Positions 1,275 through 64,000 of a DNA stretch of 64,000 nt are shown one piece after another. The stretch comes from Acidobacteriota bacterium (GTDB taxonomy: Bacteria > Acidobacteriota > Vicinamibacteria > Vicinamibacterales > UBA2999). The stretch is from the NCBI GenBank assembly GCA_030650395.1, contig JAUSDY010000128.1, positions 13 to 64,012 of the forward strand, read 5' to 3'. Position 1 is the stretch's first letter. The number at the start of each line of letters is the position of its first letter. Under the pieces are notes generated by a model that saw only the letters and a list, made by a program, of their open reading frames with translations, was not told the DNA's origin and searched no databases. A program made the translations under genes and the position numbers.

Positions 1275-1287
1275 TTATGGGATGTGG

Positions 1288-1309
1288 GGACAAACCTTCA
1301 GGTTTGTCC
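1288..1309. repeat. Short palindromic hairpin, family A: GGACAAACC-TTCA-GGTTTGTCC
   Basis: Perfect 9-bp stem with a TTCA loop, read directly. Intergenic between thyX and the 1361 ORF. A near-identical copy lies at 1801-1823. Confidence 0.9.
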
Positions 1310-1360: not shown

Positions 1361-1765
1361 ATGAAAAATCTATTTCGAACCGTCGCGTTGGCGCTCGTGC
1401 TTTCGCCGCTGGTGGTCTCCGCTCAGGCCCTGGCGCCTGCCGACGCCGGCGATTTCATGGGCGTGTGGACGCTTTCGCTCGACAGTCCGCAGGGCCCGTT
1501 CGAGCAGGCCCTGACGCTCAAAGACGAGGGCGGCAAGGTCGTCGGCGAGATGACGAACCAGATGCAGCCCGAAGTGCAGAAGGTGACCGACGTCAGCATC
1601 GCGAAAGGCGACCTGGTGCTGAAGTTTGCGGGAAATTTCCAGGGCAACCCGTTTGATGCGGTCATCACGATCACGCCCGATGGTGCCGACAAAGCGAAGG
1701 TGCTGTTCGACATCAACGGCGGGCAGTTCTCAATGTCCGGAACGGGCGCGCGGACGAAGAAGTAG
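1361..1765 (+). CDS. Small secreted hypothetical protein (134 aa)
   Basis: ORF-track protein has a signal-peptide-like N-terminus, MKNLFRTVALALVLSPLVVSAQA. Composition is non-shadow (K/D/E/F-rich). I recognise no family. Confidence 0.6.
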   Translation: MKNLFRTVALALVLSPLVVSAQALAPADAGDFMGVWTLSLDSPQGPFEQALTLKDEGGKVVGEMTNQMQPEVQKVTDVSIAKGDLVLKFAGNFQGNPFDAVITITPDGADKAKVLFDINGGQFSMSGTGARTKK

Positions 1766-1787
1766 GAGCGGGCCTTTCGGGCCGCTC
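1766..1787. terminator. Putative terminator hairpin shared by the convergent 1361 ORF and def
   Basis: GAGCGGGCC-TTTC-GGGCCGCTC, a 9-bp stem with one mismatch, directly after the TAG at 1763-1765. The T-tract is weak. Confidence 0.4.
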
Positions 1788-1800
1788 TCATTCTCTTGTG

Positions 1801-1823
1801 GGCACAAACCTTCAGGTTTGTCC
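1801..1823. repeat. Short palindromic hairpin, family A: GGCACAAACC-TTCA-GGTTTGTCC
   Basis: Same core and the same upstream TGTGG context as the copy at 1288-1309. The two copies bracket the 1361 ORF as direct repeats. Confidence 0.9.
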
Positions 1824-1840
1824 TATCCCCCGTACGCACC

Positions 1841-2380
1841 CTAATCTTCTTCTTCGTCGTCGCGTTTGGCGTGGTAGCGCGAGTACTCCTCGAGATACGT
1901 CAGCGACTCCAGCGAGCGCATGCGGTCGAAGAACAGCACGCCGTCGAGGTGATCGTTCTCGTGCTGGACGACACGGGCGGGAAAGTCGCTCAGGTCGAGC
2001 TCGAATCGCTTGCCCGTGCGGTCGAGCGCTGACACCTTGATGTGCTGCGCCCGCGACACGCGGCCGCGGACGTCGGGAACGCTGAGGCAGCCCTCCCAGC
2101 CCTCCACCGTTTGATCGCCGACGACGAGAATCTCCGGGTTGACGAGCACGGTCGCGTCGCCTTCACCTCGGCCGTCGGCGTCGAGCATGGCGACGAATAC
2201 GCGGACGGCCTGGTGCACCTGTGGCGCCGCAAGGCCGACGCCGGAGTACTCATACATGGTGTCGACCAAGTCGTCGATGAACTGCTGCAGGGCTGGACTT
2301 TTCAGCTCGGCTTTGTCGATGGCGCGCGCCTTGGCCCGCAGGACGGGGTGGCCCATCCGGGCGACTTTCAGGATCGACAT
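1841..2380 (-). CDS. def: Peptide deformylase
   Basis: 179 aa carrying the three PDF motifs: GLAAPQV, EGCLSVP and QHENDHLDG. Confidence 0.95.
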   Translation of the reverse strand: MSILKVARMGHPVLRAKARAIDKAELKSPALQQFIDDLVDTMYEYSGVGLAAPQVHQAVRVFVAMLDADGRGEGDATVLVNPEILVVGDQTVEGWEGCLSVPDVRGRVSRAQHIKVSALDRTGKRFELDLSDFPARVVQHENDHLDGVLFFDRMRSLESLTYLEEYSRYHAKRDDEEED

Positions 2381-2396
2381 GATTGGATTCTATACT

Positions 2397-2478
2397 GAGG
2401 GCTTGGGGGCTTAAGGGCTCGAGGGCTTGGCGTGCGGGCTCGACGGTCAAGTCCCCAAGCCCTCAAGCCCTCAAGCCC
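2397..2478. repeat. Inverted arrays of GGGCTTGR / YCAAGCCC octamer words (family D flank type)
   Basis: The left arm is gagggcttgggggcttaagggctcgagggcttgg and the right arm is ccccaagccctcaagccctcaagccc. It lies in the divergent def/NUDIX intergenic region. Confidence 0.85.
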
Positions 2479-2490
2479 GCGTGGTCACCA

Positions 2491-3027
2491 ATGCATTCGC
2501 ATGACTCGGAGCCGCCGTACAAGTTCTGTCCCGTCTGCGGCAGCGCTCTCGAACCGAGGGTCCTGAAGATCACCGAGCCGAAGCGCCTGGTCTGCACCAG
2601 TGCGGCCTGCGGGTTCGTGTTCTACCTGGATCCGAAGATTGCGGCCGCCACGATCATCCGCGTCAACGACGGCCGGCAGATCGTGCTGGTGAAGCGCGCG
2701 ATTGAGCCCGGGTATGGCAAGTGGGTGTTTCCGGGTGGCTACGTCGATCGCGGCGAAGAGATCACGCTCGCGGCGATTCGCGAGGCCAGGGAAGAAGCCG
2801 GGCTGGACGTGCGGCTCGATCACCTGGTCGGCATTTACTCGTACGCCGGCCGCGCGCCCGTGATCATCGTGTATGCGGCCACGAAGATCTCCGGTGAGCT
2901 CGCGGTGGATGACGAGGGGCTCGAGGCGCGCGAGTTCGACCTCGACGCGATTCCGTGGGATGACCTGGCGTTCCGCAGCACGCGCGAGGCGCTGCGCGAC
3001 TACCTCGCAGCTCTCCGAATCTCTTGA
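2491..3027 (+). CDS. NUDIX hydrolase with an N-terminal zinc ribbon
   Basis: Nudix box GGYVDRGEEITLAAIREAREEAGLD. Zinc ribbon CPVCGS...CTSAACG. I place the start at the ATG at 2491 (residue 37 of ORF 2383..3027), because the first 36 codons are encoded by the repeat at 2397-2478. Confidence 0.85.
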   Translation: MHSHDSEPPYKFCPVCGSALEPRVLKITEPKRLVCTSAACGFVFYLDPKIAAATIIRVNDGRQIVLVKRAIEPGYGKWVFPGGYVDRGEEITLAAIREAREEAGLDVRLDHLVGIYSYAGRAPVIIVYAATKISGELAVDDEGLEAREFDLDAIPWDDLAFRSTREALRDYLAALRIS

Positions 3028-6238: not shown

Positions 6239-7411
6239 CTACTTTATCACCGGGTACGTCAGGTACTCCACGCACGCCGAGGCCGTGGCCGCGTCGATCA
6301 TCTCCTTGATCGGCAGCGCCGCTTCGAGGCGCTCGATGTCGAACCGGCGGGCATGCGTCTCGGGGTGGCGTGGCGTGAACAGCGTGCACGTATCCTGGTC
6401 GGGCACGATCGAGATCTCATAGGTGCCGAGGCGCTGCGCCTGGATGGTGATCTCTTCCTTGTCCATCCCGACGAGCGGGCGGAACACGGTCAACTGCGAC
6501 GCGGTGTCGATCACCGCCATGTTGTCGAGGGTCTGCGACGCCACCTGGCCTATCACATCGCCGGTCACGAGCGCCCGGGCGCGGACGTGACGCGCGATCC
6601 GATCCGCGATCCGCAGCATCATCCGCCGATACACGACGACACGGAGATCCCCCGGAACACTCAGCGTAATCTGCCGTTGCAGATCGCCAAACGCGATCAG
6701 GTACAGACGCGTCCGCAATTGATACGTCGTCAGGACCTCGGCGAGGCGCCGCGCTTTTTCCTGCGATGTGTTCGAGAGAAACGGCACGCTGTGAAAATGC
6801 ACCAGCGTGACCTGGCAACCCCGCCGCATCATCCGCCAGGCGGCGACGGGCGAATCGATTCCGCCCGACAGCAGCGCCACCACGCGGCCCGCCGTGCCCG
6901 TCGGCAGCCCGCCCGGTCCCGGCTGGCGTCCCATGTAGCAGAAGGCGGCGCCGGGAATGATCTCGACGTGGATCACGAGGTCGGCGTGATCGAGATCGAC
7001 CTTCCACCCGCGCGCGTGCCACACGCGCGAACCGAGATCGCGCGCCAGATCGGGCGAGGGTGTCGCAAAGTCCTGGTCTGCGCGGCGAACCCTGACACGG
7101 AAGCTGCCGATCCCTTGGCGCGGCGGCAGCATCGCCACGACGTGGTTGGCCATGCCCTCGAAGTCGAGCGGCACGCGAGTAGCCACCGAATAGTTCGCCA
7201 GGCCAAACACCCGGCTCATCCGCTCGCGTACTTCGTCGGCCGTCGCTTCCTTGTTGAGGACGATCTCCAGGCGGCCCATCGGCGTGCGGATTTCTTTGAC
7301 GCCCAACCCCGCCAGGGCGGTGTGCAGGTTGCGCACGAGGCGGCGGATGAACCACGGCCGGTTCTTCCCTTTCAGCGCGAGCTCCGAGTAGTGCGCGAGG
7401 ATGGATGTCAT
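6239..7411 (-). CDS. thiI: tRNA 4-thiouridine(8) synthase ThiI
   Basis: N-terminal [11 protein letters not shown]-loop [13 protein letters not shown]. The ATG at 7411 shares one nucleotide with the hpnE TGA (TGATG). The ORF-track start at 7414 is a TTG. Confidence 0.9.
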
Positions 7412-8805
7412 CAAAAAGAAACCACGTGCTTCGTGATTCCCTTCGTGAACTTCGTGGTCTCACTTTCCGCGGCGGCACGATGACCCGAGACGACCGCGGA
7501 CTCGATCGTCGCGGGCAGGCCGGTATCGATCCAGTCGCCCGCCAAAAAGAATCCCTCGATCGGCGTCGTGGTCTGCGGCCGTGGCGGCGCAGCGGGGGCT
7601 AACGAGAAGGTCGAGCGCTTCTCGCGCACCGCCAGTCCTTTCCGCAGCCTTGCCGGCCGCGCCGCCGGCAGCGCCTCGCGCACTTCGCGAAGCGCGGTCG
7701 CAATCAGCGCGTCATTGCCCTGCGCGACGATCGCCTCCGCGCCGCTCGAAACGAGCGACAGGTGTGACGTCGCACCGCCGACGATCGCCCGGCGGTCGAA
7801 GACCCATTGGAAGGTGCGGCCTGGAAGGCCGACGAGCGGCTCGTGCATCACCGCACGATCGAACCACAGGTTGACGGTGACGATCGGCAGGCTGTGAAGC
7901 AATGCGGCGTTCGACGCAATTGCCGCCAGCGCCGGCGGCACCGCGTCGAACAGCGCTCCGAACGCATGCCACGGCACCGTCGAGATCACGATCGGTGCCT
8001 CGATGCGCTCGTCGCGGACGCGCACGCCGCTGACGCGGCTGCCGTCAACTTCCACGCGAGCCGGCGCGTTGACGCGAACGTCGTGACCGCGGTGCAGCAG
8101 CCACTCGCGCGCCGGTTCGGCATAGAGCTCATCAAGCGGCACCGCCGGCAGCACCAGCGCCGCCGCCGTCGGGTCCGCAAACATCCTCTCGAGCACCACC
8201 ACGAAGTAGTGTGCTGCGGCTTGATCGATCGACTGATTGAGCGCGGCCAGCGCCAGCGGTTCCCACAACAGCTCGATCAGGCGCTGTGGTTGCCCATGAC
8301 GGATCAACCAGTCGCGAACCGTCTCGCGATCGTGGCTGTCGTAGGGCACCCCGCGACTATGGCTGTCGTAGGGCACCCCTTTAGGGGTGCCGCCGCGAAG
8401 AGCGTTTCCGACGCGAAGGATCGCCAGTCGCTCGCCCCAACTGAGCGCCTCCCACGCCATCACCCCGCCAAGCAGGTGCAGCGGCGATGCCACCGACGGC
8501 AGTTTCAACACGCTCTCGTAGCCGCGCCGATCGATCATCGGCAGCGACAACCCGGCCTGCCACCGGACCCGATCGGACGCGCCGATCCGATCCAGGAAAA
8601 CGAGCGTCTGTTCGTAACAGCCCATCAGGATGTGCTGCCCGTTATCGACGCGCTCGCCTGTGTCGGGATCGCGAAACGCCGTGGCGCGCCCGCCCAATCC
8701 GGGGCGCGCTTCGAGCACCAGCACGCGCGCGCCGGCGTCGGCCAGCGCCGTGGCCGCGCTCAGCCCGGCGCAGCCGGCGCCGATGACGATCGCATCTAGA
8801 GCCAT
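7411..8805 (-). CDS. hpnE: Hydroxysqualene dehydroxylase HpnE (FAD-dependent amine-oxidase fold)
   Basis: Dinucleotide-binding motif DAIVIGAGCAGLSAATALADAGARVLVLEARPGLGGR, and it lies adjacent to hpnD and hpnC. I prefer the ATG at 8805, because the GTG at 8826 lies inside repeat 8809-8876. The last 17 or so codons and an internal GVPYDSH duplication are repeat-encoded. Confidence 0.85.
   Translation of the reverse strand: MALDAIVIGAGCAGLSAATALADAGARVLVLEARPGLGGRATAFRDPDTGERVDNGQHILMGCYEQTLVFLDRIGASDRVRWQAGLSLPMIDRRGYESVLKLPSVASPLHLLGGVMAWEALSWGERLAILRVGNALRGGTPKGVPYDSHSRGVPYDSHDRETVRDWLIRHGQPQRLIELLWEPLALAALNQSIDQAAAHYFVVVLERMFADPTAAALVLPAVPLDELYAEPAREWLLHRGHDVRVNAPARVEVDGSRVSGVRVRDERIEAPIVISTVPWHAFGALFDAVPPALAAIASNAALLHSLPIVTVNLWFDRAVMHEPLVGLPGRTFQWVFDRRAIVGGATSHLSLVSSGAEAIVAQGNDALIATALREVREALPAARPARLRKGLAVREKRSTFSLAPAAPPRPQTTTPIEGFFLAGDWIDTGLPATIESAVVSGHRAAAESETTKFTKGITKHVVSF
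7423..7463. repeat. CTTCGTGA-type word repeats that form the 3' end of hpnE
   Basis: Sequence cacgtgcttcgtgattcccttcgtgaacttcgtggtctcac. It uses the same word as the 13-mer arrays at 29355-29413 and 29938-30002. It encodes the tail ETTKFTKGITKHVVSF. Confidence 0.8.
8333..8391. repeat. 27-nt tandem duplication plus a GGCACCCC-TTTA-GGGGTGCC hairpin, in frame in hpnE
   Basis: The unit tggctgtcgtagggcacccc occurs twice (8333-8359 and 8360-8386), giving GVPYDSH twice in the protein. The hairpin is at 8372-8391. Confidence 0.85.
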
Positions 8806-8808
8806 CGC

Positions 8809-8876
8809 GGCCTTGAGGGCTTCCACCCCAGCGCGGGTGCCGCGCTGGGGGCCCGGTTGGGGGCTTGAGGGCTTGG
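8809..8876. repeat. Family D element (CCACCCCAGCGCGG-N-CCGCGCTGGGGGCCCGG plus GGGCTTGA words)
   Basis: Differs at 2 of about 45 aligned positions from the copy at 13221-13294. Lies between hpnD and hpnE. Confidence 0.9.
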
Positions 8877-11919: not shown

Positions 11920-12304
11920 ATTTCTGCGACGACAACACCACTATCAGCGCGCGGTCGGCTTCGGGAAAAGGCAACGACGACAGCTCGTTGCGAGGCACCC
12001 AGCGCATCTGCTGCCCCATCATCGGCTTCGGTTCGCCTTCGAACCCGCAGCGATAGAAAAACAGCTCCACCGTTTTCTCTGGATACCTGTGCGTGGCGGT
12101 GTGCACCAGCCCGCCGACGTGGCCGACGATGTCGAGCTCTTCGAAGAGCTCGCGGCGAAGCGCCTCGACATGAGTTTCGGCGTGATGGACTTTGCCGCCA
12201 GGGAATTCCCAATGGCCGGCCAGGTGCGTGCCGTCAGGCCTCAGCGTCAACAGGAACGACTCATCCTGTTCGATGACCGCTGCGACGACAACGACAGCGC
12301 TCAT
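11909..12304 (-). CDS. mutT: NUDIX pyrophosphohydrolase, MutT-like
   Basis: Nudix box GGKVHHAETHVEALRRELFEELDI. I take the start at the ATG at 12304, which makes an ATGA overlap with the upstream gene's stop. Confidence 0.75.
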   Translation of the reverse strand: MSAVVVVAAVIEQDESFLLTLRPDGTHLAGHWEFPGGKVHHAETHVEALRRELFEELDIVGHVGGLVHTATHRYPEKTVELFFYRCGFEGEPKPMMGQQMRWVPRNELSSLPFPEADRALIVVLSSQKSRN

Positions 12305-13365
12305 TGCGGAGAGGACGAACCGACCGGCACGGGCTGGATCCACGCGAGCTTGCCGTTCGATTCGATGACCTTGGCACGCACGTACCCCTCATCGCCTTTG
12401 AAGGTGTAGCTCGCCGTCGGCGTCGTCTGTTCGCTCAGCACTGTCCCCTGCCGGCCGATGAACTGAATGCGATAACGGCTCGACGGCTCTTCCTTGACGG
12501 CAATGGTGAGCGCGGTCTTCGTGGCATCGACGGAGCGAAGCTCGACGCCGGTCGACGAATAGAAGTCGCCACGCTCGAGCGCCTCGACGAGCGCGCGCGC
12601 CTCGAGCCGCGGCGACCGCACGTAGACCCAACCCTGACCCGGTCTCGGCGCCGCCGGATCCTCCGGCCGCTTGAAGTAATGCGCGTCGTCCACCGCCACG
12701 CCGTAAAGCAGCTTGCCGCTCGACAGAATGCGGTCCCACGTTTCTTCGAGCCCGGGTACGCCGCCGCCACCGAGGTTGTTCACGAACGGATGGCCGTTGA
12801 ACACCTCGAACAGGCGCGTGCGCTGGATCTGCCCGAGCTCATCCGGCGAGATCGCCCAGCCATAGTTGGGGTGATTGATGCTCGGCACGCCTCGCGCGTC
12901 GCGGATCGCATCGACCATCCGCTGCACCATATCGACGACCGATCTCCCACCCGGAGGCTGGACCAGTCGCTCGACCTCGAGGCCGTTGATGTGGATCGGT
13001 TTATCGCCAAAGCGATCGGTGATCTCCTCGCCTTTCACGACCAGGAACTTGTCGTCCGCGCCGTGCAGCGCGTTGAGGCCCGTCACGCTCGTCAGGTAGT
13101 TGTGGTCGGTGAGCACGAGGAAGTGATAGCCGCGCTCGCGGTACCACGTGACGACCGCGTCGGGCGTCGAGTCGCCGTCGCTGTTCAGCGTGTGCGTGTG
13201 GAGGTTGCCTTTGAACCACAGGGCTTCCACCCCAGCGCGGCTGCCGCGCTGGGGGCCCGGTTGAGGGCTTGGGGGCTTGAGGGCTTGAGAGCCCGACATC
13301 ACTGCACCTGCAGATCCAAAGGCCGCAATGAGAAGCACGAGACGGGCTCTTGAGAAATGTGTCAT
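12301..13365 (-). CDS. Secreted PHP-domain metallohydrolase (CehA/McbA-like)
   Basis: Signal peptide, then NLHTHTLNSDGDSTPDAVV...FLVLTDHN (PHP His/Asp motifs). It carries family D repeat 13221-13294 in frame just after the signal peptide. Confidence 0.7.
   Translation of the reverse strand: MTHFSRARLVLLIAAFGSAGAVMSGSQALKPPSPQPGPQRGSRAGVEALWFKGNLHTHTLNSDGDSTPDAVVTWYRERGYHFLVLTDHNYLTSVTGLNALHGADDKFLVVKGEEITDRFGDKPIHINGLEVERLVQPPGGRSVVDMVQRMVDAIRDARGVPSINHPNYGWAISPDELGQIQRTRLFEVFNGHPFVNNLGGGGVPGLEETWDRILSSGKLLYGVAVDDAHYFKRPEDPAAPRPGQGWVYVRSPRLEARALVEALERGDFYSSTGVELRSVDATKTALTIAVKEEPSSRYRIQFIGRQGTVLSEQTTPTASYTFKGDEGYVRAKVIESNGKLAWIQPVPVGSSSPQ
13221..13294. repeat. Family D element in frame in the PHP-domain gene
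   Basis: Sequence gggcttccaccccagcgcggctgccgcgctgggggcccggttgagggcttgggggcttgagggcttgagagccc, which encodes LKPPSPQPGPQRGSRAGVEAL. Confidence 0.9.
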
Positions 13366-14282
13366 TGAATAGATGCCTGCGTGCGAGCATCATTCCACAC
13401 CACCGTAACTTCGGTGCCACGATCGACGAAATCGCGATGCAGGTAGCCGAGGCCGACAATCGCGTTCTGAGCCGGCGAAAACGCGGCGCTGGTGACGCGG
13501 CCGATATCGCGATCGCCGGAAAAAATCCGCGCCCCTGGCGCCAAGGACAAACCTTCCACCTTCGCGCCAAGCGCTTCGGCGGACAAGAAAGGTTTGTCCC
13601 CACCAGTGGGTTCACCGGCGCCAGCGGCCTTCCATCGGACCAGCCGTTTCGCGACGCGGCCGCCGCCGCGATGCGTCACGCGGACGATCACTTCCTGGCC
13701 GACGTAGCAGCCCTTGGTGAACGAGATGGCGCGATCTTCGATGCCCGCCTCGAGCGGGATGGTGTCTTCGTTCATGTCGACGAGAAACTTGGGCACACCG
13801 TCTTCGATGCGGACGACCTCGTAGGTATCGAGATCGACTTCGGGAAAAGGAGGGGGCTGGCCCCGGTCAGCGAACACCGTGGTCCCGGAGCCCGGAGCCC
13901 GGAGCCCGGAGCCCGACTCCTTCGCAGGCCCGAACACCGTCCACACCGACAGGCTGGCGCTCTCGTCGGTGACCTGCGCGTCTTCCGTGAAGATCAAGCC
14001 GTCAAGCCGATCGCGAAGCGACGCCGCCAGCGGCGCGGGCACGTCGAGCAACAGGCGCGGCCGGCGCGCCAGGATGTTCATGTCGGTGATCATCCGGCCT
14101 TGCGGCGTCAGGTACGCCGCATAGCAGCCCTGTCCCTCGCCCAGCGCCTCGACGTCGTTGGTCACCAGGCCCTGCAGCCAGGCCGCCCGATCGCGGCCGG
14201 CCACGGCCAAAACGCCGCGATCGACCCGCCTCACGGCGCCGCCCGATGTCCGGAGTGCCCGGTAGCCGTCCAGGGAAAACAT
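13362..14282 (-). CDS. ygfZ: Folate-binding protein YgfZ (GcvT/aminomethyltransferase fold)
   Basis: RGVLAVAGRDRAAWLQGLVTNDV...YLTPQGRM...ISFTKGCYVGQE. It carries two in-frame repeats, at 13545-13599 and 13884-13915. Confidence 0.8.
   Translation of the reverse strand: MFSLDGYRALRTSGGAVRRVDRGVLAVAGRDRAAWLQGLVTNDVEALGEGQGCYAAYLTPQGRMITDMNILARRPRLLLDVPAPLAASLRDRLDGLIFTEDAQVTDESASLSVWTVFGPAKESGSGLRAPGSGTTVFADRGQPPPFPEVDLDTYEVVRIEDGVPKFLVDMNEDTIPLEAGIEDRAISFTKGCYVGQEVIVRVTHRGGGRVAKRLVRWKAAGAGEPTGGDKPFLSAEALGAKVEGLSLAPGARIFSGDRDIGRVTSAAFSPAQNAIVGLGYLHRDFVDRGTEVTVVWNDARTQASIQ
13545..13599. repeat. Family A long palindromic element (55 nt) in frame in ygfZ
   Basis: Sequence ggacaaaccttccaccttcgcgccaagcgcttcggcggacaagaaaggtttgtcc. 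By my manual alignment 49 of 55 positions are identical to 28538-28592. It encodes GDKPFLSAEALGAKVEGLSL. Confidence 0.92.
13884..13915. repeat. CCCGGAG heptamer, 4.5 copies, in frame in ygfZ
   Basis: Read directly. The same word array is intergenic at 35281-35319. Confidence 0.9.
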
Positions 14283-16528: not shown

Positions 16529-17836
16529 TCACACGCTCGCGCGCCACATCTCGTCGACCCGGTCGCGAAGTCTGAGCGCCGCCTCGCGGTAGCTTTCGTC
16601 ATCGCCGAATGTCATCGGCTGTCCAAACGCCACGGTGATCCTGCAGCCGCTCCACGGCCACAACACGTGCCAGTTGAACGCACGGTTGCGGGGCCACAGC
16701 TCGTAGATGCCTTTGAGTGCCACCGGCACGATCGGCACACCCAGGTGCCGCGCCAGAATCGGCGCGCCCTTCTTGAATTTCTTCACCGTGCCGTCGATCG
16801 AGCGCTCCCCTTCCGGAAACAGCATCAGGATCTTGCCGTGCGTCAACCCGAACGCGCCCGCCTTCATCGCGGGCACCAGGTTCGAGTCGGGATCGACCGG
16901 CACGCAGTTGACCGTGCGTGCCACCCACTTGGTGAACGGCGTTTCGAAATATTCGACCGCGCCGACGAAGAACAGCCGGCGGAACGCGGGGTACGGCAGC
17001 GCGCCGCAGACGAACAGCGGATCGAGGTAGCTCTGGTGATTCGGGCAGACCAGGAACGATCCGCTTGCCGGCAGCGATTCCAGTCCCGACACGTCGACAC
17101 GGCAGATCATGCGCAGCACTCTTGCCGCGAGATATAGCAGGGGCGTGGCGAACGGCTTGCGCTCGAGAAGGCCGCTCAGGATCGGATCCGTATCCGGCGG
17201 CAAATCCTTCAGCATGACCGCCCAGGACCCGCCGGTGCCGCCGTCACGTGGCGACAAACCTTTAGGTTTGTCGATAGGCCTGACCGCTTCGACCAGCTGT
17301 CGAACAGTAAAGATCTCCGATGCCATCGTGCCGGCCACTTGCACCTGGAATCGGTGCTCGAGCTCAGTGAGCAGCTCGACGCGCTCCATTGAATCGAGCC
17401 CCAGGTCGATCTCGAGGTTGGCCTCGGGCGCGATACGTGCGCCCGCCCGAACGCGCGGCTGCATCACCGCGGCCGCGGCGGCGGCGTGCGGATCGTCCAG
17501 CCACCGCTGATCCTCGGCGGCCAGCGACACGTCGGGGCCAACCGTGCGCTGTCGCTCGCGGACGATCCGCTCGACCTCATCGCGCTTCACCTGGCTTGAC
17601 GTCGTGCGCGGTAACGGTTCGAACCAGACGTCGTAACTCAAGATGCGCTGATCGGAGGGCAGGCCGATCGAGAGACCTTCCATCTCGAAGCGCAGGATGT
17701 CGCCGACATTGACGATTCTCTTTTTGCGCACGAGGGCCATGTTCGGCACCACCACTGCGTGGCGGTCAAGAACACAAACCTCCTCGATGAATGCTGACTG
17801 CCGGTAGTGCGCTTCGATCGCGTCAGGATCGAACAC
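16529..17836 (-). CDS. Fusion protein: AMP-binding-enzyme C-terminal subdomain, carrier (PP-binding) domain and PlsC-type acyltransferase
   Basis: The N-terminal roughly 100 aa resemble only the C-terminal lobe of acyl-CoA ligases (LPRTTSSQVKRDEV). DLGLDSMERVELLTELE is a phosphopantetheine site. NHQSYLDP (H-x4-D) and FPEGERS are acyltransferase motifs. The GTG start lies directly after the cupin gene's stop. Confidence 0.7.
   Translation of the reverse strand: MFDPDAIEAHYRQSAFIEEVCVLDRHAVVVPNMALVRKKRIVNVGDILRFEMEGLSIGLPSDQRILSYDVWFEPLPRTTSSQVKRDEVERIVRERQRTVGPDVSLAAEDQRWLDDPHAAAAAAVMQPRVRAGARIAPEANLEIDLGLDSMERVELLTELEHRFQVQVAGTMASEIFTVRQLVEAVRPIDKPKGLSPRDGGTGGSWAVMLKDLPPDTDPILSGLLERKPFATPLLYLAARVLRMICRVDVSGLESLPASGSFLVCPNHQSYLDPLFVCGALPYPAFRRLFFVGAVEYFETPFTKWVARTVNCVPVDPDSNLVPAMKAGAFGLTHGKILMLFPEGERSIDGTVKKFKKGAPILARHLGVPIVPVALKGIYELWPRNRAFNWHVLWPWSGCRITVAFGQPMTFGDDESYREAALRLRDRVDEMWRASV
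17252..17273. repeat. Family A short hairpin CGACAAACC-TTTA-GGTTTGTCG, in frame in the acyltransferase fusion gene
   Basis: Read directly. It encodes IDKPKGLSP in the linker after the carrier domain. Confidence 0.9.
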
Positions 17837-28337: not shown

Positions 28338-29351
28338 ATGCTGCCGACCGCGCTCGACATCTACGATGCCCGCCGGCGCCTGGCCACCCACCTTGGGCCC
28401 ACACCACTGCTGCAGTCGCCGTGGCTGTCGTCGATCGCCGACGGGAGCGTGTTCCTCAAGCTGGAGTCGCTCAACCTCACGCACTCGTTCAAGATCCGTG
28501 GCGCGTTGAACGCGGCGCTGAAGCTGATTGAGAGCATCGACAAACCTTCCGCCTTCGCGCACGGCGCTTCGGCGGACAAGAAAGGTTTGTCGCCACCCGC
28601 GCTGACGGTCGTCACGGCCTCGGCCGGCAATCATGGCCGGGCGCTGGCGCTTGCCGCCGAGAAGCTGGGCTTGTCGTGCGTGGTCTTTACGCCCGCCACC
28701 GCGCCCGAGACGAAGAAGAACGCGATCCGCCGTCACGGCGCGGTGCTGCACGGCGACTGCGAAGACTACGACACAGCCGAAACGCAGGCCCGCGAGTTCG
28801 CGGAGTCCGAAGGCGCGACTTACATTTCGCCGTACAACCATCCCGACGTGATCGCCGGCGCCGGCACCGTGGGCCTCGACCTGATCGAGGCGATGCCGTC
28901 GTTCGACGTGGTGGTGGTGCCGCTTGGTGGCGGCGGGCTGGCAAGCGGGGTCGGCCTGGCGGTGAAGGCCGCGGGCCCGCCCGTGACGATCGTCGGCGTC
29001 GAGGTCGAAGCCTCCGCGCCATTCACCCTCAGCCTCGAGGCCGGCCGCATTACCGCCATCACCCCGCGTACCTCGCTTGCCGACGGCCTCACCGGTAACC
29101 TCGAGGCCGGGTCGATCACCTTTCCGCTGGTGAGGCAGGTGGTCGACTACGTGGTGACCGTGAGCGAAGACGACCTGACGCGCGCGATGCGCGGGCTGGC
29201 CGCCGAAGAACACCTCATCGTCGAAGGCGCGGGCGCCGCAGCGACCGCCGCCGTGATCGCCGGCAAGGCCTCCGCGCCGGGCCAGCGCGTGATCGCGCTT
29301 GTCACCGGCGCCAACGTCGACTTGCCGAAGTGGCTCTTCGCGGTCAGCTGA
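28338..29351 (+). CDS. PLP-dependent threonine/serine dehydratase family enzyme
   Basis: LESLNLTHSFKIRGALN (PLP lysine), ASAGNHG and PLGGGGL. It carries the family A element 28538-28592 in frame. Confidence 0.8.
   Translation: MLPTALDIYDARRRLATHLGPTPLLQSPWLSSIADGSVFLKLESLNLTHSFKIRGALNAALKLIESIDKPSAFAHGASADKKGLSPPALTVVTASAGNHGRALALAAEKLGLSCVVFTPATAPETKKNAIRRHGAVLHGDCEDYDTAETQAREFAESEGATYISPYNHPDVIAGAGTVGLDLIEAMPSFDVVVVPLGGGGLASGVGLAVKAAGPPVTIVGVEVEASAPFTLSLEAGRITAITPRTSLADGLTGNLEAGSITFPLVRQVVDYVVTVSEDDLTRAMRGLAAEEHLIVEGAGAAATAAVIAGKASAPGQRVIALVTGANVDLPKWLFAVS
28538..28592. repeat. Family A long palindromic element (55 nt) in frame in the dehydratase gene
   Basis: Sequence cgacaaaccttccgccttcgcgcacggcgcttcggcggacaagaaaggtttgtcg. 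Relative to its host gene it is in the opposite orientation to the ygfZ copy. It encodes DKPSAFAHGASADKKGLSP. Confidence 0.92.
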
Positions 29352-33850: not shown

Positions 33851-35262
33851 ACCCGCGCGGGGTCGAAGTTCTCGATGCCCTTCTTGACGTCGGCCATGAA
33901 CTGATCGGCCACCGCGCCGTCAATCAGGCGATGGTCGTAGCCAAGCGTCAGGTAGCCCATCAACCGGATCCCGATCGCATCGTCCACCACGACCGGACGC
34001 TTCTCGATGGTGCCGACCCCGAGAATGGCGACCTGCGGCTGGTTGATGATCGGCATGCCGAACTGCGCGCCGAAGTTGCCCGGGTTGGTGATGGTGAAGG
34101 TGCCGCCGTGCACTTCTTCCGGATTGAGTTTTTTCGCGCGCGCGCGATCCGCGACGTCCTGGATCGCCTTTGACAAGCCGAGCAGGTTCTTCTCGCCCGC
34201 GGCCTTCACCACCGGCACGATCAAGCCGTTGTCGAGCGCCACGGCGATCCCGAGGTTGATGTCCTTCTTGTAGACGATGTTGTCGCCGTCGATCGAGGCG
34301 TTGACGATGCCGTGCACGCGCAACGCGTCGACCACGACTTTGGCGATGAGCGACGTGAAGGTCAGCTTCGCGCCGTTGCGCTCGAACTCGTCCTTCCTCG
34401 CCTGGCGAATCTGATCGATCCGGGAGTAGTTGACCTCGAACACCGAGTAGACATGCGCCGAGGTGCGGCGGCTCACGACCATATGGTCGGCGATCTTCTT
34501 GCGCATCACTGACATCGGAACGATGTCATCCTGAGCGAGGGATTTACTCGCGGAGCGAGTAGAGCCCGAGTCGAAGGACTCGCGGACGGCTGCAGGGGTC
34601 GAGGAGGTGTCGCTATCCAGGTAGCCAAGGATGTCCTGCTTGGTAACACGCCCGCCGATACCCGAGCCCGCGATCCGGCCGATGTCGACGTTGTGCTCCT
34701 TCGCAATGCGGCGCACCAGCGGGGAAGACTTTTGACGGTCGAACGCTGATTCGGCCCCGCCGTCGCGGCCGGAGGCCGCTACGGCGAGGTCTCGCCGTCG
34801 CTCGCCTGAATCTCCGCGAGCGGAGGCGGACTGAGGTGCCGGGTTGGTGGTCGGAGGCGACGCCGGCGCAGCAACCGAACCCCCGGGGGTGCCCGTTGCG
34901 TCAGCGCTCTCAGAGGTCTTGGTCGCACCCGCACTCTTGGCACCTTTGGCACCATTGGCACTCGTTGCACTCTCGGCACCCTTCGCACCCGAGGCACCCG
35001 AGGCACCTTCGGCGGGTGCTTCGCCCGCCGTTCCGATGGTGCCGACGACGCTGTTGACCGGGACGGTCTCGCCTTCCTTGACGGCAATGGCGATCAACAC
35101 GCCGGCTGCCGGCGCCGGAATCTCCGCATCCACCTTGTCGGTCGAGATCTCGAACAGCGGCTCGTCGCGATCGACCGCGTCGCCCACCTTCTTGATCCAG
35201 CGAACGATGGTGCCTTCCGCAATCGACTCGCCCATCTGGGGCATCACTACTGGTGTGGACAT
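33847..35262 (-). CDS. 2-oxoacid dehydrogenase E2 component (dihydrolipoamide acyltransferase)
   Basis: Lipoyl domain (EISTDKVDAEIPAP), E3-binding domain (SSPLVRRIAKEHNVDIGRIAGSG..GRVTKQDI) and catalytic DHRLIDGA. The linkers carry repeats 34525-34579 and 34936-35013. Confidence 0.9.
   Translation of the reverse strand: MSTPVVMPQMGESIAEGTIVRWIKKVGDAVDRDEPLFEISTDKVDAEIPAPAAGVLIAIAVKEGETVPVNSVVGTIGTAGEAPAEGASGASGAKGAESATSANGAKGAKSAGATKTSESADATGTPGGSVAAPASPPTTNPAPQSASARGDSGERRRDLAVAASGRDGGAESAFDRQKSSPLVRRIAKEHNVDIGRIAGSGIGGRVTKQDILGYLDSDTSSTPAAVRESFDSGSTRSASKSLAQDDIVPMSVMRKKIADHMVVSRRTSAHVYSVFEVNYSRIDQIRQARKDEFERNGAKLTFTSLIAKVVVDALRVHGIVNASIDGDNIVYKKDINLGIAVALDNGLIVPVVKAAGEKNLLGLSKAIQDVADRARAKKLNPEEVHGGTFTITNPGNFGAQFGMPIINQPQVAILGVGTIEKRPVVVDDAIGIRLMGYLTLGYDHRLIDGAVADQFMADVKKGIENFDPARV
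34525..34579. repeat. Family C element (long form) in frame in the E2 gene
   Basis: Sequence gtcatcctgagcgagggatttactcgcggagcgagtagagcccgagtcgaaggac, which encodes ESFDSGSTRSASKSLAQDD. It is read in a different frame from the copies in lipB and the GT-C gene. Confidence 0.85.
34936..35013. repeat. 9-nt periodic array of YNNGGCACC words (about 8.5 copies) in the E2 linker
   Basis: Sequence cttggcacc tttggcacc attggcact cgttgcact ctcggcacc cttcgcacc cgaggcacc cgaggcacc. It encodes a GA(S/K/E)-type linker. Confidence 0.9.
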
Positions 35263-37084: not shown

Positions 37085-37146
37085 CCAACTCTAAACTCAA
37101 AACTGAACTCAAAACTGAAACTTTCAACTTCGAACTTTCAACTTTG
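37085..37146. repeat. AT-rich heptamer word array (AACTCWA / AACTTTC types)
   Basis: Sequence ccaactctaaactcaaaactgaactcaaaactgaaactttcaacttcgaactttcaactttg. Lies in the divergent region upstream of the NtrC-type regulator gene. Confidence 0.85.
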
Positions 37147-39686: not shown

Positions 39687-39715
39687 GAAGTCAGAAGTGA
39701 GAGTCGGAAACCTTC

Positions 39716-39743
39716 CAACTTTCAACTCTCAACTTTCAACTTC
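39716..39743. repeat. AACTTTC heptamer array (4 copies)
   Basis: Sequence aactttc aactctc aactttc aacttcc, the reverse complement of the array at 39394-39420. Confidence 0.9.
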
Positions 39744-52533: not shown

Positions 52534-54180
52534 ATGGAGAGCTACGCCCGCGGGCCCGACTCACCGCTTCTGGACCTCACGCTCGGCGAGCTGCTCGCCG
52601 CCACCGCCGCGCGCGTGCCCAATGCGCTCGCGCTCGTGTCGCGGCAGCAACACGAGCGATTCACCTATCAGCAACTCTTGACGGAGGTCGATCGCGTCGC
52701 CGGTGGGCTGCTCGACCTCGAGCTGGCCGCGGGCGATCGCATCGGCGTGTGGTCAAGCAACTGCACCGAGTGGATCCTGTTGCAGCTGGCGGCGGCGCGC
52801 GCCGGGCTCGTGCTCGTCAACGTCAACCCCGCCTACCGATCCCACGAGCTCGGCTACGTCCTGCGTAAGTCCGGGATGAAGGCGCTGTTTCTATGGCCGC
52901 AGGATTCGCGCGCAAGCTACCGGCAGATTCTTGCCGAAGCGCGTTCCGGTAATGATGCCGCGCTCCGGCACGCGATCTTCTTTGACGAGGAACCGTGGCA
53001 GCGCATCCGCGCCGGCAACCGGGCCCCCAGCGCGGCAGCCGCGCTGGGGTGGAAGGCCAGGCCGATCGCCCCGATCGACCCGCACGAGGTCGTGAACATC
53101 CAGTACACGTCGGGCACGACCGGATCGCCGAAAGGCGTGCTGCTGACGCATCACAACCTCGTCAACAACGGCGCGCTGTTTGCCGACGGGCTCAAATACA
53201 CGGAGGCGGATCGAGTGTGTGTGCCCGTGCCGCTCTATCACTGTTTCGGTTGCGTTATCGGCGTGATTGCGAGCGTCAAGGCCGGCGCCGCGATCCTGCT
53301 GCCGGCGGCCGGTTTCGATCCGGGCGCGACGCTCGCGATGATTGCGGAAGAAGGCGCGACCTCGATCTACGGCGTGCCCACGATGTTCATCGCCGAGCTC
53401 GCCCATCCCGAGTTCTTGACATTCGACCTGACCTCGCTTCGCACCGGCGTGATGGCGGGCGCGCCGTGCCCGATCGAGGTGATGAAACGCGTGCTGACCG
53501 AGATGCACTGTCCCGAGGTCACGATCGCGTACGGCCAGACGGAAACATCTCCTGGATTGACCCTGTCCGGTGTTGACGATGACGTCGAGATCCGGGTGTC
53601 GACGGTCGGCGACGCGATGGCCAACACCGAGCTGAAAATCGTCGACACCGAGACCGGCGCGATCGTCGAGCGCGGTGCGCAAGGGGAGATCTGCGCGCGC
53701 GGCTACATGATCATGAAGGGCTACGACCAGGAGGCCGAAGCCACCGCGCGCACCATCGACCCCGGCGGCTGGCTGCACACCGGCGACCTGGGCGTGATGC
53801 GCCCCGACGGCTACATCCGCGTCACCGGCCGCGCCAAGGACCTGGTGATTCGCGGCGGCGAGAATATTTATCCGCGCGAGGTCGAAGAGTTTCTCTACAC
53901 CCACCCGAACGTCGCCGAGGTGCAGGTCGTCGGCCTGCCCGACGAGCGGCTCGGCGAGACGCTGGTCGCATGGGTGCGGCTGCGCCAGGGCGACTCCGAC
54001 GAAGACGAGATCCGGACGTTTTGCCGGGGCAAGATTGCCCATTTCAAGATTCCCGAATTCATCCGCATCGTCGATTCGTTTCCGATGACCGTCACCGGAA
54101 AGGTGCAGAAGTTCCGCATCCGGGAGATTGAAATCGAGGAGCGCGGCCGCCAGCGCGCGGCCGGCATCGAAACCGCCTGA
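52534..54180 (+). CDS. AMP-dependent acyl-CoA synthetase/ligase
   Basis: IQYTSGTTGSPKGVLLTHHN, YGQTE, TGDLG and GKVQKF. It carries family D repeat 53019-53058 in frame. Confidence 0.9.
   Translation: MESYARGPDSPLLDLTLGELLAATAARVPNALALVSRQQHERFTYQQLLTEVDRVAGGLLDLELAAGDRIGVWSSNCTEWILLQLAAARAGLVLVNVNPAYRSHELGYVLRKSGMKALFLWPQDSRASYRQILAEARSGNDAALRHAIFFDEEPWQRIRAGNRAPSAAAALGWKARPIAPIDPHEVVNIQYTSGTTGSPKGVLLTHHNLVNNGALFADGLKYTEADRVCVPVPLYHCFGCVIGVIASVKAGAAILLPAAGFDPGATLAMIAEEGATSIYGVPTMFIAELAHPEFLTFDLTSLRTGVMAGAPCPIEVMKRVLTEMHCPEVTIAYGQTETSPGLTLSGVDDDVEIRVSTVGDAMANTELKIVDTETGAIVERGAQGEICARGYMIMKGYDQEAEATARTIDPGGWLHTGDLGVMRPDGYIRVTGRAKDLVIRGGENIYPREVEEFLYTHPNVAEVQVVGLPDERLGETLVAWVRLRQGDSDEDEIRTFCRGKIAHFKIPEFIRIVDSFPMTVTGKVQKFRIREIEIEERGRQRAAGIETA
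53019..53058. repeat. Family D core element in frame in the acyl-CoA synthetase gene
   Basis: Sequence ccgggcccccagcgcggcagccgcgctggggtggaaggcc. It is the reverse complement of the 13221-13260 core with one difference. It encodes NRAPSAAAALGWKAR, a different frame from the PHP-gene copy. Confidence 0.9.
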
Positions 54181-56478: not shown

Positions 56479-56558
56479 GTGCAAAGTTGAGAGTTAAGAG
56501 TAAAAGGCGCAGAATCCGATTTAGAATCTGCACTCTAAACTCTTAACTCTGCACTTCA
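56478..56558. repeat. Hairpin built from GAGTTAA/AACTCTT words
   Basis: The arms are gagtgcaaagttgagagttaagagt and actctaaactcttaactctgcac. Lies between the Omp85 stop and the DUF3500 gene start. Confidence 0.85.
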
Positions 56559-57602: not shown

Positions 57603-57695
57603 GTTCAGAGTGCAGAGTTAGGAGTTAAGAATAGTTCTGAACTCTGCACTCATAACTCTTAACTCTTAACTCTTAACTCTTAACTCTTAACTCTG
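57601..57695. repeat. Hairpin plus AACTCTT heptamer in 6 tandem copies
   Basis: The arms are gagttcagagtgcagagttaggagttaag and ttctgaactctgcactcataactcttaactc. The tandem heptamers run 57654-57695. Lies between convergent genes. Confidence 0.9.
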
Positions 57696-57701
57696 GCGCC
57701 T

Positions 57702-59930: not shown

Positions 59931-59958
59931 CCCGCCTTCGCCGCAAGGCTTCGGCGGG
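59931..59958. repeat. GC-rich palindromic motif CCCGCCTTCGCCGCAAGGCTTCGGCGGG
   Basis: Closely resembles the internal segment (CCGCCTTCGCGCACGGCGCTTCGGCGG) of the family A long elements. Lies upstream of sucA. Confidence 0.75.
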
Positions 59959-62785: not shown

Positions 62786-64000
62786 ATGTCCACCAACATC
62801 GTGGTTCCGGAGCTCGGCGAGTCGGTGGTCGAGGCGCGCGTCGCCAAGTGGCTGAAGAAGCCGGGCGATGCGGTATCGGCCGGCGATGCGCTGGTCGAGC
62901 TCGAAACCGAGAAGATCGATCTCGAAGTGAGCGCCGATCGCGCCGGTGTGCTTCGAGACATCAAGCACAAGGAAGGCGAAGACGTTAAGGTCGGAGAGAT
63001 CCTCGCCATTCTCGAAGAACCCGCCTCGAATGGCTCGGACCGAACAGACAAGGTGCCTAAGGTGCCTACGGTGCCAGAGGTGCCAAAGGGGAATGTGCCA
63101 AAGGTGCCAGGTGCTTCTGCCACGGAGAGAAAAGCCACACCAACTGCGAGAAACGTGGCGAAAGCGCACGATGTCAAACTTGAATCGGTCGCGTCCAATG
63201 GGCCTCGAGTGACTAAGCAAGATGTCCTGAAGGCAAAGGCACCGGCACAGACACAGGCACCTTTGGCACCCACCCCGGCACCGTTGGCACCGTTGGCACT
63301 CGTGGCACCTAGAGAAGGCGCTCGGACCGAAACCCGCGAGCGCATGAGTAAACGCCGAGCGACCATCGCGCGGCGGTTGGTCGAGGCGCAGCACACCGCA
63401 GCGATGCTCACCACCTTCAACGAGGTGGACATGAGCGCCGTGATGGGCCTGCGCGAGCGCCGCAAGGAAGCCTTCACCAAGAAACACGGCGTCGGCGTTG
63501 GCATCGCGTCGTTCTTCGTCAAGGCGGCGATCGGCGCGCTCAAGGCGTTCCCGCAGCTCAACGCGGAGATCCAGGGCGACGAGATCGTCTACAAGCACTA
63601 CTACGACATCGGCATGGCGGTCGGGGCTGAAGGCGGGCTCGTGGTCCCCGTGCTGCGGGATGCCGACCAGATGACCTTTGCCGCAATCGAGCTGGCGATC
63701 CGCGATGTCGCCAGGCGCACCGGCGACGGCACGCTGACACTCGAAGATCTCAAGGGCGGCACGTTCACCATCACCAACGGCGGCGTGTTCGGATCGCTGA
63801 TGAGCACGCCCATCCTCAACCCGCCGCAGGTCGGCATCCTGGGGCTGCACAAGATCGCCGACCGCGCCGTCGCGATCACCGGACAGGTAGTGATCCGGCC
63901 GATGATGTACGTCGCCCTCAGCTACGACCACCGGCTGGTTGACGGCCGCGAAGCGGTGCAATTCCTCGTCAAGATCAAAGAGTTCATCGAAGACCCGGCC
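62786..64000 (+). CDS. sucB: 2-oxoglutarate dehydrogenase E2 (dihydrolipoyllysine-residue succinyltransferase); the 3' end runs off the window
   Basis: Not in the ORF track because it crosses the window edge. My translation from the ATG at 62786 reads [48 protein letters not shown]...[13 protein letters not shown]...TTFNEVDM...[13 protein letters not shown]. It is open to position 64000. Confidence 0.9.
63050..63114. repeat. 9-nt periodic RRGGTGCCW word array in sucB linker 1
   Basis: Sequence aaggtgcct aaggtgcct acggtgcca gaggtgcca ..., which encodes [21 protein letters not shown]. Confidence 0.9.
63256..63309. repeat. The same 9-mer word in inverted orientation (GGCACC...) in sucB linker 2
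   Basis: Sequence ggcacctttggcacccaccccggcaccgttggcaccgttggcactcgtggcacc, which encodes [18 protein letters not shown]. Confidence 0.9.

Follow-up and report, generated by a model that had tools for sequence, protein, structure and literature searches.

Introduction

Rickettsia palindromic elements (RPEs) are palindromic repeats that lie in frame within housekeeping genes (Ogata et al. 2000); the RPE-1 type has a length of about 100-150 bp, and Rickettsia is the only host (PMC10969869, PMC3733652). Repetitive extragenic palindromes (REPs) carrying a GTAG or CGTC tag have been described inside genes of Opitutus terrae, Thauera, Rickettsia conorii and other bacteria, where they were argued to fall in linkers or loops of the encoded proteins (Di Nocera et al. 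2013; PMC3733652). Here we analyzed a 64,000-nt stretch of DNA from an Acidobacteriota bacterium (contig JAUSDY010000128.1; hereafter the window), in which a palindromic element of 55-60 nt lies in frame in two unrelated genes, one encoding a YgfZ-like protein and the other a pyridoxal phosphate (PLP)-dependent dehydratase. A first-pass annotation of the window had regarded such insertions as uncommon outside Rickettsia, a view at odds with the intragenic REP-type palindromes published for O. terrae, Thauera and others (PMC3733652).

Some REPs are found within small palindromes that also occur empty elsewhere, as with GTAG-23 of T. roseum in CCGSSCC(n3,4)GGSSCGG (PMC3733652). The mobility of REPs mediated by REP-associated tyrosine transposases (RAYTs) is a hypothesis (PMC3733652, PMC3116915). 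In Nostocaceae, the small dispersed repeat (SDR) SDR5 possibly uses the short palindrome HIP1 as an insertion site (PMC5861425). The IS200/IS605 insertion sequences are described as moving by single-strand 'peel and paste' in which DNA hairpins are recognized, insertion is seamless and 3' of a short fixed sequence, excision is precise, and the target is not duplicated (PMC6006769).

The element analyzed here resembles the RPEs in that palindromes lie in frame in unrelated housekeeping genes, leave the open reading frames (ORFs) intact, add a peptide where the fold allows, and have both genic and intergenic copies. It differs in its dimensions (27 nt plus 33 nt), its occurrence in a free-living soil Acidobacteriota lineage, its two-layer build, and the existence of alleles with and without it. 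RPE-1 to RPE-10, with lengths of about 100-150 bp and a Rickettsia host, are set apart from it by both length and host, a distinction drawn from their description and not from comparison with their consensus sequences.

Two copies of a composite palindrome in unrelated genes

Positions 13545-13599 and 28538-28592 of the window, both read on the + strand, are equal at 49 of 55 positions. The six mismatches are position 1 (G/C), position 55 (C/G), position 14 (A/G, a stem base), and three apical loop bases; the swap at positions 1 and 55 is a compensatory change of the closing pair, G...C versus C...G, which is complementary in both 55-mers. The arms GACAAACCTT / AAGGTTTGTC are exact in both, and a search of the window for these arms at that spacing returned two matches, exactly the 13545 and 28538 sites, where shuffles lead one to expect 0.00. 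Because CCACC follows both copies, the similarity spans 59 nt at 92% identity (13546-13604 versus 28539-28597). A long interrupted hairpin can form on either strand of both copies, with z-scores of -4.5 to -5.2 against shuffles. The 55-60 nt segment is a composite, in which a 33-nt hairpin module stands at the tip of a smaller 27-nt hairpin repeat; these are called the inner unit and the outer element below. The two copies and their host genes are as follows.

13545..13604, + strand: composite copy 1, inside the ygfZ-like gene (gene on the - strand)
13545-13554: copy 1, left arm GGACAAACCT
13555-13587: copy 1, inner unit of 33 nt, TCCACCTTCGCGCCAAGCGCTTCGGCGGACAAG
13588-13590: copy 1, loop remainder AAA
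13591-13599: copy 1, right arm GGTTTGTCC
13600-13604: copy 1, one-sided tail CCACC
28538..28597, + strand: composite copy 2, within the gene for the PLP threonine/serine dehydratase, which is on the + strand
28538-28547: copy 2, left arm CGACAAACCT
28548-28580: copy 2, inner unit TCCGCCTTCGCGCACGGCGCTTCGGCGGACAAG
28581-28583: copy 2, AAA
28584-28592: copy 2, right arm GGTTTGTCG
28593-28597: copy 2, tail CCACC
13362..14282, - strand: host gene 1, YgfZ/GcvT-like folate-binding protein, 306 aa, MDO8680740.1 (Pfam GCV_T and GCV_T_C, PDB homologues)
28338..29351, + strand: host gene 2, PLP-dependent threonine/serine dehydratase, 337 aa, MDO8680756.1 (Pfam PALP)

Both proteins belong to a metagenome-assembled genome labelled Acidobacteriota, and their closest named relatives are Vicinamibacterales. 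Both host ORFs are open throughout the element, reading GGDKPFLSAEALGAKVEGLSL and IDKPSAFAHGASADKKGLSPP, respectively. The same alleles were found again in independent JGI, ENA, NCBI, and Logan assemblies.

Realignment and the arm search thus agreed with the first-pass annotation on the 49/55 identity, the compensatory terminal pair, and the inverted-repeat arms, and its statement that both host ORFs remain open also held. Its description of opposite orientations applies to the host genes, which lie on opposite strands, but not to the two copies of the element, both of which are on the + strand. It had further reasoned that the likeness is not one of protein homology, and with this we concur, since the same DNA is read on opposite coding strands.

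Alleles with and without the inner unit

Orthologous sites in other assemblies (contigs are given L numbers, and proteins P numbers) carry the short hairpin alone, with exactly 33 nt fewer at the hairpin apex, which bears out the nesting of one element in the loop of another that had been proposed for the window. For the dehydratase gene, L120, whose protein is 98% identical outside the loop, and the more distant L121 both have the short hairpin GACAAACCTAAAGGTTTGTC. They read GACAAACCT^AAAGGTTTGTC, or over a longer span ATCGACAAACCT^AAAGGTTTGTCGCC, and the window adds exactly 33 nt at the caret. The composite is present in the window and L250, and L247 holds a remnant in which only GATAAAC is kept. 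The alleles of ygfZ are as follows.

L124: short form, GGTGGGGACAAACCTTCAGGTTTGTCC (coding strand)
Window and L249: outer element as in L124, with the inner unit in one orientation
L123: outer element with its tail side unchanged (GGTGGCG...), inner unit reversed
L125: no hairpin

The L123 allele has a compensatory arm change, GGCAAACC / GGTTTGCC, and its outer tail GGTGGNG lies on the 5' side of the coding strand. No duplicated base was found at the junctions of the 33-nt insertion/deletion in the dehydratase and ygfZ orthologues. The junction AACCT^TCC.CC is present in 7/7 composites (the two of the window, L123, L220, L248, L249, and L250), so that the inner unit sits directly after the first loop T of the outer hairpin. 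On its 3' side, the inner unit is followed by three bases that agree with the resident loop, AAA with taaa hairpins and TCA with the ttca hairpin. Peptides elsewhere fall mostly into the two expected classes, ...ADKKGLSP(P/Q) with the tail on the 3' side and GG.KPS...AD(K/R)SGLP with the tail on the 5' side. From these sequences, we read the alleles to mean that the inner unit has entered a pre-existing outer hairpin at its apex at least twice independently, once on each strand.

The outer 27-nt element

Comparison of all arm-bearing copies gave the anatomy of the outer element, an asymmetric hairpin of 27 nt with GGACAAACC, a loop T[A/G]AA (TNNA), GGTTTGTCC, and a CCACC tail. Because the tail is on one side only, the orientation of the outer element can be read. 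Three copies in the window lack the inner unit.

1283..1309, + strand: intergenic copy of the outer element by itself, upstream of ORF 1361..1765 (small secreted protein)
1797..1823, + strand: intergenic copy of the outer element by itself, with one arm mismatch, flanked by the convergent ORFs 1361..1765 (+) and 1841..2380 (-)
17247..17273, - strand: outer element alone, CGTGGCGACAAACCTTTAGGTTTGTCG, in frame in ORF 16529..17836 (-)

The copy at 1283-1309 has its tail, GTGGGG, on the 5' side and is thus in reverse orientation; together with the copy at 1797-1823 it flanks the small secreted-protein ORF. We take ORF 1841..2380 (-) to be deformylase-like from its sequence only. The copy at 17247-17273 reads PIDKPKGLSPR and is in the linker between the PP-binding and acyltransferase domains, where the L125 orthologue has a different linker that is 3 aa shorter. 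The short hairpins noted in the first pass, placed here at 1289, 1803, and 17253, are therefore genuine, with 10 arm half-sites against 1.5 expected, and the last of them is itself in frame in a gene.

The window holds five arm-bearing copies in 64 kb, three short and two composite. Six further outer elements, all short and none composite, were found in L120, L121, and L124 combined, and three of these (L121:1474, L121:1977, and L124:10490) are at sites that are not orthologous to the window copies. The L124:10490 copy is intergenic between convergent genes, as is that at 1797-1823. No outer element was found in L122, L125, or L126, which formed part of the approximately 100 kb of related contigs examined. 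The density is about one copy per 5-13 kb, in intergenic and genic DNA alike. The dispersed family that the first pass had supposed is thus real, its further copies lying in a third gene and between genes, as well as in related genomes. A loose contig pattern, GACAAACCN{7,37}GGTTTGTC (16 specified bases, 31 gap lengths), yielded 119 matches attributable to chance, which came from unrelated phyla and lacked the core. Taken together, the sequences indicate that the outer element is a REP-like repeat, apparently specific to a Vicinamibacterales-like Acidobacteriota lineage.

In L121, the outer element at 1474-1499 (loop taaa) supplies the stop codon (..ACA AAC CTT TAG) of a hypothetical gene, 1481..2047 (-), which also has an in-frame copy at 1977-1996.

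The inner 33-nt unit and its relatives

The inner unit (13555-13587 and 28548-28580) reads TCCGCC / TTC / GCGC / NNN / GCGC / TTC / GGCGGA followed by an unpaired CAAG. It folds with a 6-bp stem closed by T/A and a second stem, GCGC, separated by the internal loop TTC/TTC; the terminal loop has 3 nt, and the 3' CAAG tag is unpaired. The corresponding pattern, CCNCCTTCGCGCNNNGCGCTTCGGNGG, was found at no fewer than 120 loci in JGI metagenomes, whereas a rough composition-based estimate gave only a few chance matches. Among the matches listed, the flanks form about 75 families, and the GACAAACC arms occur in L220 only. In these matches there is covariation at the free stem position (G-C 73, T-A 18, A-T 14) and at the pair just outside the pattern, -1/+1 (T-A 55, C-G 46). 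A CARG tag stands at +2..+5, one base past the stem, in 46/123 of the listed copies and 29/75 of their flank families, and no CARG counterpart was found at the mirrored 5' positions in these same copies. The position of this tag coincides with the 3' boundary of the 33-nt insertion/deletion, the two boundaries having been defined independently. Non-Watson-Crick variants are biased by strand, with 15 compatible with G.T pairing when read on the complement of the search pattern, whose internal loop carries GAA, and 2 when read on the other strand. Two other copies of the inner unit, L191 and L167, are also nested in a hairpin. These features place the inner unit in a widespread hairpin superfamily of soil metagenomes with covarying stems and a one-sided CARG tag. 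A search of the whole window against Rfam 15 gave 0 matches at the gathering threshold.

The window has one relative of the inner unit without the arms.

59932..59957, + strand: arm-less relative of the inner unit, CCGCCTTCGCCGCAAGGCTTCGGCGG, intergenic

The likeness of this sequence to the centre of the composite, remarked on in the first pass, extends to the outer stem and the TTC/TTC internal loop but not to the inner stem, which is GCC/GGC. Two arm-less sister copies also have GCC/GGC, namely L121:10218, which is intergenic, and L124:6409, which is in frame within a gene for an FAD oxidoreductase. The ygfZ composite at L248:10087 has a different core variant, CCGCCTTCGCTCCAGCTACGGCGG, nearly identical to the arm-less copy L248:10380, which lies about 300 nt downstream in the next gene of the same contig; this hints at within-genome homogenization or replacement of the inner unit.

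Three further observations concern the superfamily. In one loop of an FAD-dependent amine-oxidase-like enzyme, L124:6362-6481 carries the in-frame arm-less relative, read as NRLRQGFGGQE, and the window orthologue, 7411..8826 (-), has in the same loop a tandem GVPYDSH(S/D)R duplication instead; judging from these two sequences, the loop looks like another insertion hot spot. Superfamily copies in L134 and L137 (positions 71-97) abut an apparent tRNA gene end (..GCTCTACCGCTGAGCTAACCGC). Large flank families pair the inner unit with a neighbouring GTAG-tagged hairpin (e.g., ..GGCGGACTCAAACCCGCCGTAGCTCGCGAAGCGAG), in mosaics like those of bacterial interspersed mosaic elements.

The inserted protein segment

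In YgfZ, the element corresponds to residues ~229-247, between the folate-binding domain and the C-terminal barrel. In the dehydratase, it corresponds to residues 68-86, between a helix at 51-68, which comes after the SFKIRGA lysine motif, and a strand at 90-93, which comes before SAGNHG. The dehydratase has about 19 extra residues relative to the solved structures of TdcB (2gn0) and Schizosaccharomyces pombe serine racemase (1v71), both of which show a gap at the element site. Its loop comprises 32 residues in the window protein and 14-16 in most of 120 homologues, e.g., ALRLMEGSDPGASPQL. Nine members of its cluster, of 336-337 aa and with at least 90% identity, come from independent assemblies. 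The segment is absent from most YgfZ orthologues in our orthologue alignment (A2) and, taking both hosts, from all of the solved PDB homologues compared and most of the orthologues. It is a lineage-specific in-frame insertion in both proteins, in agreement with what had been supposed from the window by itself.

An AlphaFold model of the dehydratase, made with 26 orthologues, has a predicted local distance difference test score (pLDDT) below 50 exactly at residues 69-86, in a coil between H51-68 and E90-93, and the insert is therefore predicted to be a disordered loop between the helix and the strand. The model of YgfZ had a mean pLDDT of 50 and was too poor to use. Removal of the segment by translational bypass or in the manner of an intein was considered and rejected; the segment is open and in frame, and orthologues gather in-frame changes. 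Peptides such as LIESIDKPSAFAHGASADK in mass-spectrometry data would mark the insert as translated.

The same loops vary elsewhere. In other lineages, the dehydratase loop has unrelated extra peptides (MEGEGFSPR... and others in P0033, P0048, P0051, and P0088), and residues ~119-135 of YgfZ in alignment A2 form a second hypervariable loop with repeat-like peptides, such as HPSTLLGVTLSSSKGQGRPEGEG in P0181. This variety suggests that different small repeats may have repeatedly colonized the same surface loops.

A single frame in genic copies and conservation of the stem

On the metagenome contig L220, the composite lies in frame, reading RVIDKPSAFAPGASADKKGLSPPGRV, in a gene that is presumably MutS2-like, with the insert just before what we take to be the Smr domain. 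With this copy, nine independent arm-bearing sites could be compared, five genic and four intergenic, a small sample that was partly found through genes. All five independent genic copies, in ygfZ, the dehydratase, the acyltransferase, MutS2, and L121:1977, use the DKP...GLS frame; given the first copy, four further matches in frame would occur by chance about 1 time in 81. The remaining frames would encode basic, cysteine-containing peptides, as read directly from the sequence. The first-pass annotation had stressed that the element is open in both orientations. Six of six frames of the 55-mer are indeed open on direct reading, but this is weak evidence in a window of 65% G+C. The informative point is the one frame in every genic copy rather than openness, and this single frame looks like a survival filter.

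A profile of the element peptide, run on 1.84 billion representatives, gave 23 matches. Six single-stretch matches carry the element peptide (DKPS.FA..A.ADK[KS]GL), several of them in short, possibly spurious ORFs. Two of the six proteins we assume to be an alpha/beta hydrolase fragment and a secreted peptidase-like protein. The top multi-stretch matches were repeat proteins and were discarded: P0248 and P0253 have TGKPSTFAPS repeats with a chance resemblance to KPSAFAPGAS, and these two, the ones inspected, are presumably phage tail fibres. A 44-aa query joining both reading directions returned no homologous protein candidate.

In some relatives, the element is more conserved than its host genes. 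L249 matches the window at 53/53 positions of the element in ygfZ, with 84% third-codon-position identity in the rest of the gene. For the dehydratase, L250 matches at 49/53, all four changes being unpaired, against a third-codon-position identity of 60%, and L121 matches at 20/20 against 66%. Decayed or truncated inserts in an otherwise intact gene were found in P0003, P0004, P0006, P0008, P0012, P0016, and P0018. An element that is uniform in some lineages and decaying in others fits a population kept by copying or conversion.

Other repeats in the window

A second palindromic family, CCCCAGCGCGGNNGCCGCGCTGGGG, has copies at 8826-8850, 13230-13254, and 53025-53049. The copy at 53025 is in frame in the AMP-dependent ligase ORF 52534..54180 (+), where it reads RAPSAAAALGWKA just upstream of NIQYTSGTTG, and that at 13230 falls within the N-terminal part of ORF 12301..13365 (-); by virtue of these two copies, more than one palindrome family is present in coding DNA of this genome. 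A 60-nt repeat (8816-8875 versus 13220-13279, 95% identity) combines a CCCCAGCGCGG hairpin with 8-nt units of the GGGCTTGAGGGCTTG type. Such units, also found at 2396-2426 and 13254-13300, give ORFs 12301..13365 (-) and 2383..3027 (+) N-terminal linker peptides that resemble SPQALKP. The window also has AT-richer direct repeats (AACTYTYAACT...) with a period of 14 nt, unusual at 65% G+C, at 37105-37144, 39703-39742, 56527-56556, and 57640-57699, and GGCACCNTT-type tandem repeats whose period is 9 nt at 34930-35006 and 63277-63308.

Comparison with known mobile repeats

REPs, including those paired in doublets (REPINs), are GC-rich imperfect palindromes of 20-40 nt; one end bears an unpaired tag of four nucleotides, some have a short tail, and the units described here share these features (PMC3733652, PMC2817692, PMC3116915). 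Dispersal, covarying stems, intragenic copies, and occurrence inside small palindromes are further points of likeness. In size and dispersal the units fall within the range of REPs, the inner unit with covarying stems at 120 loci or more and the outer unit with five copies in 64 kb and others in related contigs. They differ in the tag, which is CARG (CYTG on the other strand) and not GTAG or CGTC; the 27-mer and the 33-mer contain neither of the latter, nor their complements. About half of the independent sites are genic (5/9, a small sample partly found through genes), in which respect the family may differ from the predominantly extragenic REPs; no head-to-head REPIN doublets were found among the arm-bearing copies compared.

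The cyanobacterial SDRs are likewise very small (21-27 nt), hairpin-forming mobile repeats (cited in PMC3116915, PMC5861425). Phylum and sequences set them apart. Elhai et al. 2008 reportedly observed SDR elements that were nested and others within conserved genes. The AACCT^ junction in 7/7 composites accords with the target behaviour of IS200/IS605 elements, seamless and 3' of a fixed short sequence. Those elements, however, bear a pair of unlike subterminal hairpins, and their autonomous forms measure at least several hundred bp, compared with one 29-nt hairpin and a 4-nt tag here, and the wobble asymmetry here points to the other strand. [quoted passage not shown] Assignment to the MITEs was rejected, as these are 70-300 bp long with terminal inverted repeats and target-site duplications, whereas the present element is shorter than 60 nt with no junction duplication.

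We found no description of such repeats for Vicinamibacteria in the literature consulted. The kind of element is already known, namely intragenic REPs and REPs nested in palindromes; what is new is the lineage, the sequences, the CARG/CYTG tag, the apparently high genic fraction, and the allelic series in both orientations.

Proposed mechanism and alternative explanations

The above considerations make it reasonably probable, in our judgment, that two nested, non-coding, selfish palindromic repeats are tolerated inside genes at this locus. The inner unit, on either strand, would be inserted at the outer hairpin's apex just 3' of the first T of the loop (AACCT^), in a seamless manner that duplicates no target bases. 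Movement may proceed through single-stranded DNA hairpins acted on in trans by an HUH/Y1-type enzyme, either a RAYT or one resembling the IS200/IS605 'peel and paste' enzymes; such a mechanism would insert a unit seamlessly, 3' of a short target, and excise it precisely. The short-form hairpin GGACAAACCTAAAGGTTTGTCC is a candidate integration substrate for an HUH enzyme. Genic copies would survive only where they occupy a surface loop and are read in the hydrophilic DKP...GLS frame, all others being purged, and the stem sequence may be held uniform by ongoing copying or conversion among copies. We propose the specific enzyme class with considerably less confidence than the account as a whole.

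Several points weigh against this account. No transposase was found, and none was sought, the ORFs of the window being unscreened for Y1_Tnp. The wobble bias suggests that the folding strand is opposite the strand with the constant AACCT^, which misfits a simple IS608-like picture. Flank complementarity of at least 7 bp was found in 5% of the inner-unit copies among the matches listed, versus 1.5% in controls, and nesting is thus a special case and not the general one. The gene tree is compatible with either direction of change, insertion of the inner unit or its precise excision. The hairpin-free orthologues have otherwise diverged loops and offer no clean pre-insertion sites from which the target of the outer element, or any duplication, could be read. 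Copy counts cover the 64-kb window and about 100 kb of related contigs rather than a whole genome. Finally, the conservation of the stems could reflect a host function and not copying.

Spread of the inner unit need not involve transposition at all, as it might pass among outer hairpins by short-patch gene conversion or replication template switching, with the arms (9-11 nt) as homology. Since the arms are palindromic, conversion could work in either orientation and would give a seamless gain or loss of 33 nt without target duplication, as seen; stems more conserved than the host gene are also in keeping with it, and the match of the L248 ygfZ core to its arm-less neighbour resembles within-genome homogenization. 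Conversion would, however, be expected to bring the loop bases of the donor, and instead the bases 3' of the inner unit follow the resident loop, AAA versus TCA. Arms of 9-11 nt are also very short for recombination, and the superfamily occurs in many unrelated flank contexts without these arms, so that the inner unit must also move by another route; we therefore consider conversion as the sole process unlikely. Somewhat more doubtful is the proposal that the composite is the primary mobile unit and that the short hairpins of 20-27 nt were left by precise excision or deletion of the inner hairpin. The dehydratase tree has composites in two subclades with short alleles as close relatives (P0002 beside P0001; P0015 near P0011), and excision of the HUH type would be precise. 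Yet the short form is the commoner one, with three copies against two composites in the window and six against none in L120, L121, and L124 together, and short forms have canonical T[A/G]AA loops at many unrelated sites. An identical loss of 33 nt would be needed in separate lineages with no flanking direct repeats, and the reversed inner unit within the unchanged outer orientation of L123 needs an extra event.

A host function might instead keep the hairpin, as an mRNA structure affecting translation or decay, as a DNA site for a nucleoid or topology protein, a role that has been suggested for REPs, or as a useful surface peptide. The stems are conserved well above synonymous-site identity, the arms show compensatory changes (the G..C/C..G closing pairs and the L123 pair given above), and two intergenic copies, at 1797-1823 and L124:10490, are between convergent genes. 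Yet no single role at the RNA level fits an element that is found between genes as well as within unrelated ones, and on either coding strand. In addition, the insert decays or vanishes in several orthologues with the gene intact, the encoded segment is predicted to be disordered, and there is neither an Rfam match nor a T-run for termination, all of which make a host function improbable. A transcription terminator as such was rejected, as the element lacks a T-run and is inside ORFs. Chance similarity, an assembly artefact, or convergent protein motifs arise for consideration only a priori, because the window comes from a metagenome-assembled genome. With zero matches expected from shuffles, agreement among independent assemblies, and identity at the DNA level across opposite coding strands, we give these explanations almost no credence.

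With the preferred reading of two nested selfish repeats, a broader and tentative proposal can be made. The inner unit, a hairpin closed by 6 bp with an unpaired CARG/CYTG tag, might represent a third, undescribed REP-like tag class that is widespread in soil bacteria. It would rank with the smallest units of mobile DNA for which a target rule can be defined, here seamless entry 3' of T in a hairpin loop, or 3' of CT elsewhere, in either orientation and with precise exit. If this were true, the series of alleles with no hairpin, the short form, the composite in forward orientation, and the composite in reverse orientation would be a rare record of REP-type transposition and would point to a specific HUH enzyme.

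Implications

The main value of the locus is as a natural record of micro-element insertion. Movement of REP-type micro-repeats has so far been mostly inferred, and the locus gives before and after alleles at base resolution, in two genes and in both orientations. It also yields a definite rule for the target (AACCT^, with no duplication) and a unit, delimited to 33 nt, that lends itself to biochemistry. Such repeats matter for gene annotation, by way of orthologues of variable length and spurious small ORFs, as well as for protein-family alignments and for how proteins gain new loop sequence. Several palindrome families are thus hosted in surface loops and linkers of core enzymes by the abundant soil Acidobacteriota, beyond the reduced, intracellular Rickettsia.

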